A DNA stretch of 64,000 bases from a virus (lineage: Duplodnaviria > Heunggongvirae > Uroviricota > Caudoviricetes): the IMG/VR virus record IMGVR_UViG_3300024269_000017. The stretch is one strand, 5' to 3'. Below are positions 29,467-30,365 of the stretch, in pieces. The translations under genes and the position numbers were made by a program. Below the pieces are notes generated by a model. The model saw nothing but the letters and a program-made list of their open reading frames with translations, did no database searches and had not been told where the DNA came from. Every line of letters begins with the position of its first letter. The first letter of the stretch is position 1.

Positions 29467-30210
29467 ATGAGTCAAAATTCTCTTGATCCATCTCGTTTTG
29501 CTTATGTTACATTATTAAGCTCTGAAGATTATTTAGATGCAGTTTTAGTATTGCATGAAAGCCTGAAAGATGTGCAGGCTAAATTTCCTTTAATATGTGG
29601 AGTTACTAAAAATTTAAATTCCACACAACTTATCACAAAATTGATGAATTCTGGTATTCATATTGAATGGATTGAACCTTTGGAATATAGTGCTGGGACA
29701 CAAGCAAAATATCCAGGAAAGGTAGTATTAAATACTGCATCCAAGGTTAATTTGTTTAATTTAGTAAATTATGATAAACTTTGTTACATTGACGCTGATA
29801 CGATTGTCGTCAACAATATTGATGATGTATTCGATCGGCTGGATGGTTCAATGGTAAAGTTCCAGAATGATGATTATGGTTTTACTGGACTATTTGTATT
29901 TAGCCCTCGTAATCATCGAGCAGATTTTTATTTGCATCTATTGAAGAATTTTGATTGTTTTGACGGTGATCTAATTGGTTCTTTATGGTTCCACACTCGT
30001 ACAAGTGCAGATCACTGGATTAGTGATGACTATTGCAAACATTATAATAACGATGTAAAACGCAAAGGTAATCATAACGTCCGTGTTTGGCATTTCTGCA
30101 ATGAGGGTTGTAAACCTTGGAAACCTGCAGATCGAGAAAACATGAAACCCACTTATGTGCTTCAAAAGTACGATGATCTTTTGGCTCGCGTTCATGGTAT
30201 GTTTGATTGA
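29467..30210 (+). CDS. glycogenin-like GT8 family glycosyltransferase
   Basis: FAYVTLLSSEDYLDAVLVLHESLK and KLCYIDADTIVVNNIDDVFDR align to the glycogenin N-terminus and its DxD region. Confidence 0.7.
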   Translation: MSQNSLDPSRFAYVTLLSSEDYLDAVLVLHESLKDVQAKFPLICGVTKNLNSTQLITKLMNSGIHIEWIEPLEYSAGTQAKYPGKVVLNTASKVNLFNLVNYDKLCYIDADTIVVNNIDDVFDRLDGSMVKFQNDDYGFTGLFVFSPRNHRADFYLHLLKNFDCFDGDLIGSLWFHTRTSADHWISDDYCKHYNNDVKRKGNHNVRVWHFCNEGCKPWKPADRENMKPTYVLQKYDDLLARVHGMFD

Positions 30211-30258
30211 TTTTTTTCAAAATTTTTGATATAATATATATGTAAGGTCGAAAAAGCC
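30207..30258 (+). promoter_or_regulatory. phage promoter family member dedicated to the suppressor tRNA
   Basis: ttgatt at 30207-30212, tataat at 30230-30235, atatatgtaaggtcg. Confidence 0.6.
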
Positions 30259-30274
30259 AACATCCCCTATTTAT

Positions 30275-30365
30275 AGGGGAGTGGTGTAACGGCAGCACGG
30301 CAGACTCTAAATCTGTTAGCCCTCTGAAGGCGTAAGTCAGGGTTCGAATCCCTGCTCCCCCGCCA
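30275..30365 (+). tRNA. type-II tRNA with anticodon CTA (amber/UAG suppressor; Ser-like discriminator G)
   Basis: Anticodon arm GCAGA-CTCTAAA-TCTGT (CTA at 30307-30309), variable hairpin GCC-ctctgaa-GGC, T-arm CAGGG-TTCGAAT-CCCTG, CTCCCCC-G-CCA. Confidence 0.6.

Follow-up and report, generated by a model that had tools for sequence, protein, structure and literature searches.

Does an amber-suppressor transfer RNA (tRNA) encoded by a phage translate TAG codons in the phage's own genes and, if so, with which amino acid is it charged? The question is raised by a tRNA gene at 30275..30365 on the + strand of a 64,000-nucleotide (nt) window of the IMG/VR record IMGVR_UViG_3300024269_000017 (Caudoviricetes); the window is the whole stretch of DNA that we analyzed, and coordinates refer to it unless a relative is named. 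The tRNA, called by ARAGORN and Rfam, is 91 nt long (88 nt plus an encoded CCA) and has the anticodon CUA. We explain it as a functional phage amber suppressor that lets this phage family read TAG as a rare sense codon, probably as glutamine (Gln), a reading to which we give roughly two chances in three (0.68).

The first step is to establish that the gene encodes a proper tRNA. ARAGORN reports a tRNA with the anticodon cta at 30275..30365 (+), labelled 'Pyl' because of the anticodon CTA alone, while the Rfam model RF00005 is matched over its full length (model positions 1-71) at 30275-30362 with 53.3 bits, where the gathering score is 29 (E 6e-11). The acceptor strands (30275-30281 and 30355-30361) form six Watson-Crick pairs beneath an unpaired A1 (30275)•C72 (30361), with G2-C71 and G3-C70 at the acceptor end and a G at position 10. 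The D stem, GUGU/GCAC, comprises 4 base pairs (bp) and carries a 7-nt loop, AACGGCA, and the anticodon stem GCAGA/UCUGU closes the loop C-U-CUA-A-A, with CUA (positions 34-36) at 30307-30309. The T arm, CAGGG-UUCGAAU-CCCUG, is canonical, and both the D loop (G18 G19) and the T loop are normal. The variable region (30317-30337) is 21 nt long and folds into a GCC/GGC stem with a UGA-containing loop, with six unpaired bases 3′ of the extra-arm stem, and the molecule ends with the discriminator G73 at 30362 and the encoded CCA at 30363-30365. In essence, this is the RF00005 cloverleaf of an elongator tRNA whose sole defect is the A1•C72 mismatch. The initial annotation of this locus, made from the letters alone, had proposed a CUA anticodon in a well-formed tRNA with a long variable arm and G73, and had suspected that A1 and C72 do not pair; ARAGORN, Rfam and our own reading of the sequence agree on the anticodon, the 21-nt extra arm and the G at 30362 are as described, and the mismatch is present here and open in the family consensus as well. 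An alternative fold that would shift the anticodon had been named as one of the results that would undo that proposal, and none was found.

Conservation of the tRNA reinforces the call. In an alignment of six homologous phage tRNAs the cloverleaf is identical and 1:72 is unpaired, with compensatory changes in 9 of the 24 pairs, located in the acceptor, D and T stems. A scan of IMG/VR with the anticodon arm found ~17 viral contigs that carry homologous long-arm CUA tRNAs. Protein look-ups with window-type proteins gave relatives of the window itself, syntenic metagenomic contigs of 170-174 kb that include L034, L038 and L101, the last of which is 91-95% identical to the window in DNA sequence. 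The suppressor keeps its syntenic position in these relatives, where promoter, leader and tRNA are all conserved. Its sequence identity is 100% with L034, L035 and L038, even though the ThiF proteins of these phages share only ~70% identity (67-70%) with that of the window. ARAGORN places 33 tRNA genes in the window, this one included; all of them are + strand genes and lie in the interval 20.4-37.3 kb. Arrays of the window and its relatives hold 33-36 genes, with a single CUA tRNA in the window, L034 and L035. Across phages of 26-43% GC, the GCC/GGC stem and the UGA loop of the extra arm are invariant, and because the other stems covary over the same range, this invariance suggests sequence-specific recognition of the extra arm by some partner.

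The second step is to ask whether there are TAG codons for such a tRNA to read. Two genes of the window contain one in frame. The ThiF-family (E1-like adenylyltransferase) gene at 32048..32758 (+) has 236 codons and the Shine-Dalgarno (SD) sequence GGAGG, and its TAG is codon 45 (32180-32182). This codon falls within GVGGNG...LAR-TAG-GCKK, the nucleotide-binding motif, and the Pfam ThiF match (E 4e-26) extends through it. TAG at codon 45 recurs in the independent assemblies L045 and L101, both of which add TAG at codon 81, and the corresponding codon is CAA at position 45 in L034-L039 and L046 and at position 81 in the window and L046. The second gene, at 38419..38700 (+), lies directly after metK, has the SD sequence GGGAGG and comprises 93 codons, of which codon 15 (38461-38463) is TAG. 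Here, TAG is found at codon 15 in each of the 12 relatives checked at the DNA level, among them L034, L038 and L101-L109, and the relatives' products are 67-91% identical to that of the window in amino acid sequence. Between the window and L101, synonymous and nonsynonymous changes in the ThiF gene stand at 12:1 upstream of the TAG and 27:8 downstream, and the synonymous share in the 93-codon gene is well above the expectation for random change. Because mostly synonymous changes flank the TAG on both sides, the two frames are, on the evidence of substitution patterns, translated across it. Relatives also hold genes that are missing from the window and have 3-5 TAGs each. One is a gene of ~370-396 codons with 3-5 in-frame TAGs (L034 12818-14008; L038 13666-14784; L047 3645-4826; L050 192-1304), which sits between tRNA-Ser(UGA) and a 90-amino-acid gene in relatives and is absent from the window. 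This TAG-rich gene has no match in Pfam or PHROGs, and PHROGs has none for the 93-codon protein. The two sense TAGs of the window are the only ones in its ~15,000 codons. Further open reading frames (ORFs) with in-frame TAGs were rejected: 1992-2549 (+) is of low complexity and antisense to a - strand gene at 2016-2477, 251-1024 (-) appears non-coding, 30453-30830 overlaps tRNAs, and in 10345-11346 and 37123-38415 the TAG lies upstream of the true start.

The use of TAG as a terminator tells the other half of the story. Of the ~80 ORFs on the + strand, TAA is the terminator of 45 and TGA of 35; TAG closes 2, one of which is spurious, as it overlaps tRNAs. TAG accounts for 12.6% of the stop trinucleotides on this strand, so that a single TAG stop among ~80 genes has P = 2.5e-4, and in five relatives' loci TAG ends 0 of 107 called genes. 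The sole window gene that ends in TAG lies at 55469..55705 (+); its TAG (55679-55681) is followed 7 codons on by an in-frame TGA (55703-55705), and read-through would add just 7 residues. This phage family has all but given up TAG as a terminator. The initial annotation had taken the suppressor as a signature of stop-codon recoding and had advised a search for TAG within conserved genes; that search yields the TAGs at 32180 and 38461, and the near-absence of TAG as a terminator accords with it. By these sequence comparisons, TAG is recoded as a rare sense codon in this phage family.

Which amino acid TAG stands for can be approached from the proteins and from the tRNA. For the proteins, we counted TAG columns in called genes of the phage family for which the sense partner was verified at the DNA level, which gave 16 independent columns; translations in which TAG is read as Q (P0001, P0029-P0034, P0052) were left out of the count, and an all-frame BLAST survey of TAG columns was dropped in favour of the called genes, having been swamped by conserved non-coding frames. 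Gln is among the sense partners at 10 of the 16 columns, once with H alongside it, and serine (Ser) is a partner at 2. Summed over the 16 columns, BLOSUM62 scores are 35.6 for Q, 15.4 for E, 5.5 for K, 4.4 for R and 0.5 for S. In the codon usage, CAG stands at 22.9 per 1000 codons and TCG, the Ser codon one step from TAG, at 0.74 per 1000. It is probable from these alignments that the residue at TAG is Gln, the known phage 'code 15'. As a test in another lineage, a TerL-like ORF of L016 was compared with PDB sequences, with no match.

For the tRNA, the bacterial Gln identity set consists of G73, U1-A72, G2-C71, G3-C70, G10, U35, G36, A37 and U38 (PMC9976931 Table 1). The suppressor has G73, G2-C71, G3-C70 and G10 from this set, with 1:72 open (A•C) in place of the weak U-A pair. 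Its anticodon loop has C34, U35 and A37, with A38 rather than U38 and with A36 in place of G36, the latter because any amber suppressor requires A36. Some of this likeness is shared with the phage's own glutamine tRNAs. The phage tRNAGln(CUG) and tRNAGln(UUG) both have U1-A72 and G73; acceptor bases 2-6 of the suppressor (GGGGA) are those of tRNAGln(UUG), and its D arm is nearly that of tRNAGln(CUG). In homologous suppressors from other phages, 1:72 is U1-A72, A1-U72, U1•U72 or A1•C72, all of them weak or mismatched. Among the classical amber suppressors, su+3 tRNATyr(CUA), itself of class II, inserts Gln once it is mutated to A1, to G73 (G82) or at C72; A1 and G73 are native to the tRNA described here. 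Where a host has no glutaminyl-tRNA synthetase (GlnRS), GluRS2 and the amidotransferase likewise depend on the first pair for recognition (PMC9976931). U35 is a strong recognition element for GlnRS, and in E. coli it is common for amber suppressors to receive Gln (PMC1483225). The class I architecture of tRNAGln, with a variable loop of 4-5 nt, is not that of the suppressor, which has a 21-nt extra arm. We infer that the suppressor works like a tRNAGln without being a canonical member of that class.

Several observations weigh against this interpretation. At 6 of the 16 TAG columns the partners are non-Gln only (T/D/Y, N/I, S, W/F, E/K and R), and the alignment of TAG with Gln would be equally expected from CAG→TAG transitions at tolerant sites. 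The discriminator of the tRNA family varies between phage lineages, being A or G. In its D arm and in the 3′ half of its extra arm, the suppressor is as close to the phage's tRNALeu(UAG) as to its tRNAGln. The features by which seryl-tRNA synthetase (SerRS) mainly identifies its tRNA, namely a long extra arm, G73 and G2-C71 (PMC9976931), are all present in the suppressor. Charging with Gln would presume suitable machinery in the host, which is probably among the Firmicutes. Finally, the window represents 64 kb of a genome of ~174 kb, and a second suppressor is possible outside it. The window and all relatives' loci used cover the early/middle region, with ~110 kb of genome lying outside, and searches for the rest of the genome with window proteins returned short contigs or another ~8 kb of early genes. 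Similarity over the whole sequence gives no basis for a choice: compared with the 32 other tRNAs of the window, the suppressor scores about equally with Leu-UAG, Pro, Gln-CUG and Ser-GCU, and does not discriminate among them.

The alternative that survives best, and one that we nevertheless consider unlikely, is a Ser-inserting class II suppressor, charged through its extra arm and G73 by SerRS, which is blind to the anticodon, as in E. coli supD. The extra arm matches in length, with 21 nt as against 19-21 nt in the phage's three tRNASer, and G73 and G2-C71 are both in place. An A73→G change can convert a class II tRNALeu to Ser identity (PMC9976931), and the window is without a tRNASer(CGA), which lies one mutation from CUA. 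It was G73 that had led the initial annotation to call the tRNA Ser-like. This assignment finds no support, since G73 is not diagnostic of Ser: the tRNAGln (two), tRNAAsp (two), tRNATrp and tRNAArg(ACG) of the window share it with the three tRNASer. Bacterial tRNASer conserve both G1-C72 and G2-C71 (PMC9976931), and all three tRNASer of the window begin with GGAG and end with CUCC, whereas the suppressor has only the second of these pairs, with A1•C72 in place of the first and weak pairs there in all homologues. Its 4-bp D stem with a 7-nt loop also differs from the phage's tRNASer, the six unpaired bases after the extra stem speak against that identity, and the invariance of the extra-arm loop across distant phages is not explained by recognition of the backbone by SerRS. 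The proteins point the same way, as partners at TAG are mostly Gln, with the Ser sum at the bottom of the BLOSUM scale given above and TCG almost unused.

More doubtful still is that TAG stands for another residue (Lys, Glu, Tyr or Leu), or that charging is ambiguous and TAG polysemous at tolerant sites. LysRS also reads U35 and amber suppressors can be lysylated (PMC1483225), E, K, R, H and Y all occur among the TAG partners, and some family members have A73 and U1-A72. In addition, the anticodon arm GCAGACUCUAAAUCUGU is Tyr-like, and a true Tyr-type CUA tRNA (L083) has the same arm. Against these stand the discriminator, since G73 is an antideterminant for LeuRS and TyrRS (PMC9976931 Table 3), and the columns themselves, where Leu is never a TAG partner, Tyr appears only at poorly conserved columns, the sums for E and K fall far under that for Q, and both recent ThiF TAGs have taken the place of strictly conserved Gln codons. 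Least probable of all is that the tRNA acts mainly on the host (by read-through of host TAG stops, or as a decoy for anticodon nucleases) or is a relic, with the in-frame TAGs being inactivating mutations or read by a different suppressor encoded outside the window: phages with CUA suppressors and no recoding have been described (PMC12386605), sense TAGs are few in the window, an RNA-repair cluster in it suggests tRNA-targeting warfare and ~110 kb of genome lies outside the data, but the 93-codon TAG is kept across orthologues of 67-91% identity and is flanked on either side by sequence under coding constraint, independent samples retain the ThiF TAGs, exactly one CUA tRNA is present in a 33-36-gene array in the window and three relatives, and none of the relatives' 107 genes terminates in TAG.

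How a suppressor that inserts Gln would come to be made can be followed from its promoter onward. A host-type (sigma-70/sigma-A-like) promoter with an extended -10 element lies at 30207..30258 (+), identified by its motif repeats and by its conservation before the same tRNA in L034 and L038. It consists of TTGATT (30207-30212), a 17-nt spacer, TG (30227-30228) and TATAAT (30230-30235), followed by the conserved box ATATATGTAAGGT, and 39 nt separate the end of the -10 element from A1 of the tRNA. The 12-mer TTTTGATATAAT occurs 17 times in the window at no more than one mismatch, against 0.94 expected, and 16 of these occurrences are on the + strand. All 16 have the whole ~50-nt motif, TTGAnn-17 nt-TGnTATAAT-ATATATGTAAGGTTGAGAG, and the promoter copies span 915-50610 of the window (e.g. 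9607, 11892, 22241, 23034, 30224, 33209 and 39139). The part downstream of the -10 element, ATATATGTAAGGTTGAGAG, is unusually long for a conserved element and covers the start site and the first ~20 nt of the transcript. Because conservation extends over the start site and early transcript, the transcripts may have a 5′ leader or a regulatory box in common.

Between promoter and tRNA lies the 5′ leader segment CATCCCCTAT(TTAT) at 30261..30274 (+), which is complementary both to the trailer ATGGGGATG and to the 5′ acceptor strand of the tRNA, with which it can form a hairpin (30263-30280). The 3′ trailer ATGGGGATG, at 30375..30383 (+), is complementary to CATCCCC(T)AT of the leader. Leader (30261-30270) and trailer (30375-30383) are in this way mutually complementary, each mimicking one acceptor strand, and both are conserved in L034 and L038; they are possibly a processing stem or a remnant of gene acquisition. 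Downstream, ARAGORN finds tRNA-Gly(UCC) at 30475-30550, tRNA-Gly(GCC) at 30641-30714 and tRNA-Phe(GAA) at 30718-30794, all on the + strand, and no terminator-like site was found on this strand 3′ of the suppressor before the next promoter at 30808-30836. Because no such site intervenes and the next promoter comes only at 30808, the suppressor is most likely co-transcribed with these three as a four-tRNA unit. The initial annotation had described a dedicated phage promoter; the + strand promoter copy upstream of the tRNA is real, but it is not private to the suppressor and heads the probable four-tRNA unit.

The mechanism that we propose would begin with early transcription by host RNA polymerase from this strong extended -10 promoter, with the suppressor first in its four-tRNA unit and subsequently processed from a ~33-nt leader. 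The host glutamine system, either GlnRS or ND-GluRS plus GatCAB, would then accept the suppressor through its open or weak 1:72, G2-C71, G3-C70, G73, G10 and U35. Once charged, the suppressor would compete with RF1 at UAG, and as the sole CUA tRNA of the array it would decode the in-frame TAGs of the ThiF-family gene, of the 93-codon gene and of the relatives' TAG-rich genes. Its long, sequence-invariant extra arm gives it a class II shape. This arm could be an antideterminant or a binding site for a factor of the phage or the host, and in either role it would render the suppressor efficient or orthogonal, for instance by aiding competition with RF1, escape from host tRNA nucleases, or recruitment of GlnRS or GatCAB. 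That we have here a natural class-II-shaped tRNA charged with Gln, with the extra arm serving as a sequence-specific handle, is a tentative suggestion that we hold to be rather less probable than its being wrong; if true, Gln would join the class II identities Leu, Ser, bacterial Tyr and Sec.

The closest known systems are the code 15 phages, namely crAss-like phages, Lak phages, phAss-1 and the clades of Borges et al. In reports of phage recoding where the code differs from that of the host, only TAG→Gln and TGA→Trp are found (10.1101/2021.08.26.457843). Reassignment of TAG to Gln with CUA tRNAs, with TAG depletion preceding recoding, has been described by Borges et al. (10.1101/2021.08.26.457843) and in the phAss-1 and zeta-crAss papers, and phage recoding has been validated by proteomics (PMC9523058). 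Shared with the code 15 phages are a phage-encoded CUA tRNA, TAG-depleted stops, in-frame TAGs that align with Gln, the lack of any dedicated synthetase seen and a host that presumably uses the standard code. Unlike in those phages, the suppressor has a 21-nt extra arm (that of phAss-1 was scored as Gln by tRNAscan-SE), the TAGs lie in early/middle accessory genes under host-type promoters rather than in structural or lysis genes, within the region covered, and recoding is sparse, affecting 2 of ~70 window genes. No discussion of a class-II-like suppressor body was found in the phage-recoding literature searched, and no close relative among GenBank phages was found by DNA or protein search.

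Likeness to E. coli suppressors is of two kinds. With E. coli tRNAGln/supE, the mischarged su+7 tRNATrp-CUA and su+3, the tRNA shares an open or weak 1:72, G2-C71, G3-C70, G73, G10 and U35; the su+3 and su+7 cases are laboratory mutants or E. coli mischarging, while the suppressor here is a natural, conserved phage gene. With supD and the allo-tRNAs, class II tRNAs of Ser identity with odd anticodons (PMC5389517), the common points are the length of the extra arm, G73 and an anticodon whose reading would not be needed for charging. Allo-tRNAs have 8/4 or 9/3 geometry (PMC5389517), whereas the suppressor has a canonical 7/5 acceptor/T geometry and no G1-C72, and its protein evidence favours Gln. 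A Sec or allo-tRNA geometry (8/4, 9/3 or 8/5) was ruled out by the 7-bp acceptor and 5-bp T stems. The suppressor resembles tRNAPyl in its CUA anticodon and in its anticodon arm GCAGACUCUAAAUCUGU, which is identical to that of a bacterial tRNAPyl from the genome scan. It was rejected as a tRNAPyl, since a genuine one is 72 nt long, with a very small D loop and just 3 nt in its variable loop, where the suppressor has 88 nt plus CCA and a normal D loop; the annotated ORFs of the window include no pyl genes.

In some other phage lineages (GC 26-32%), the long-arm CUA tRNA stands 5 nt from a 73-nt Gln-type CUA tRNA with the same T arm. Such tandem CUA tRNA pairs occur in L001, L006, L007, L019, L021, L032 and L069. 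These lineages are heavily recoded: neighbouring ORFs (L031, L007, L019, L021) have up to 28 in-frame TAGs, and a 1117-codon ORF of L031 has 18. The two forms of suppressor may be paralogues with distinct roles. Nothing was found among the proteins of other phage loci that co-occurs consistently with the type II suppressor.

The charging of suppressor tRNAs in hosts with the standard code is a recognized open problem (10.1101/2021.08.26.457843), and it becomes directly testable with a conserved candidate whose acceptor end is Gln-like and whose body is of class II, from a tRNA family present in at least 17 viral contigs. The phage family may also represent a minimal state of recoding, in which TAG is gone as a stop while accessory genes in the neighbourhood of the tRNA have a few fixed sense TAGs, and this state fits the proposed path of depletion, suppressor acquisition and spread of sense TAGs. 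In practical terms, annotators need to treat TAG as sense in such phages, as genes like ThiF are otherwise split, and genetic-code expansion could make use of a natural suppressor that is compact and has an invariant extra arm.

By its gene content, the window is the early/middle region of a large phage. Besides a tRNA array with PD-(D/E)XK and HNH endonucleases, it encodes a cREC_REC protein, an SPFH/flotillin protein, topoisomerase II and RNase H. Auxiliary genes of the one-carbon/methyl cycle on the + strand encode FolD (3904-4737), S-adenosylmethionine synthetase (MetK; 37357-38415) and formate-tetrahydrofolate ligase (56598-58238; 793 bits). The RNA/tRNA-repair cluster (44392-53648, +) comprises an RlaP-like nucleotidyltransferase, two metallophosphoesterases, an HNH protein, a YqeY-like protein, an RNA ligase and an AAA_33 kinase. 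The YqeY-like protein (47227-47682) is free-standing and belongs to the GatB/YqeY tRNA-binding domain family, which makes it a candidate tRNAGln-binding helper. PD-(D/E)XK_5 and HNH endonuclease genes lie at 24499-24930, 34579-35022 and 46386-47027 (+), in the tRNA array and the repair cluster, and because the positions of endonuclease genes differ between relatives, mobile homing endonucleases are suggested to reshuffle the array. A DUF2828/DUF7788 protein (39491-41005, +) is followed by an 823-amino-acid protein (41583-44054, +) with major-vault-protein shoulder/repeat domains; its homologues (40-45% identity) were confined to huge uncultured phages (LR756500-3) and the phage L012, which has a long-arm CUA tRNA as well.

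Two further tRNA-like sequences, both on the + strand, lie in or near the array. One, at 19093-19210, was missed by ARAGORN and scores 47.1 bits with the Rfam tRNA model. It has normal acceptor, D and T arms and G73-CCA, with 60 nt in place of the 17-nt anticodon arm, and the last part of the insert is the Asn(GUU)-like stem-loop GUG-CUGUUAA-CAC. There is no other tRNA-Asn in the window, L034 has a normal one, and the sequence could be an intron-like insertion or a decayed gene. The other, at 35163-35227, is partial and matches the Rfam model over positions 5-66 with 45.9 bits. It has the loop CAUUGAU (anticodon UUG), with A33 rather than U33, and its acceptor stem is broken; this is probably a pseudo-tRNA, and L034 has tRNA-Thr(UGU) at the corresponding place. 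Amid the + block, three genes run on the - strand: a membrane-protein-like gene (14230-14823), a helix-turn-helix regulator-like gene (2726-3271) and a 153-amino-acid gene (2016-2477). Long - strand ORFs also lie antisense to + genes, for example at 11795-13594, 39452-40828 and 47628-49025, because TTA, CTA and TCA codons, the complements of stops, are rare at 3.7-7.0 per 1000.

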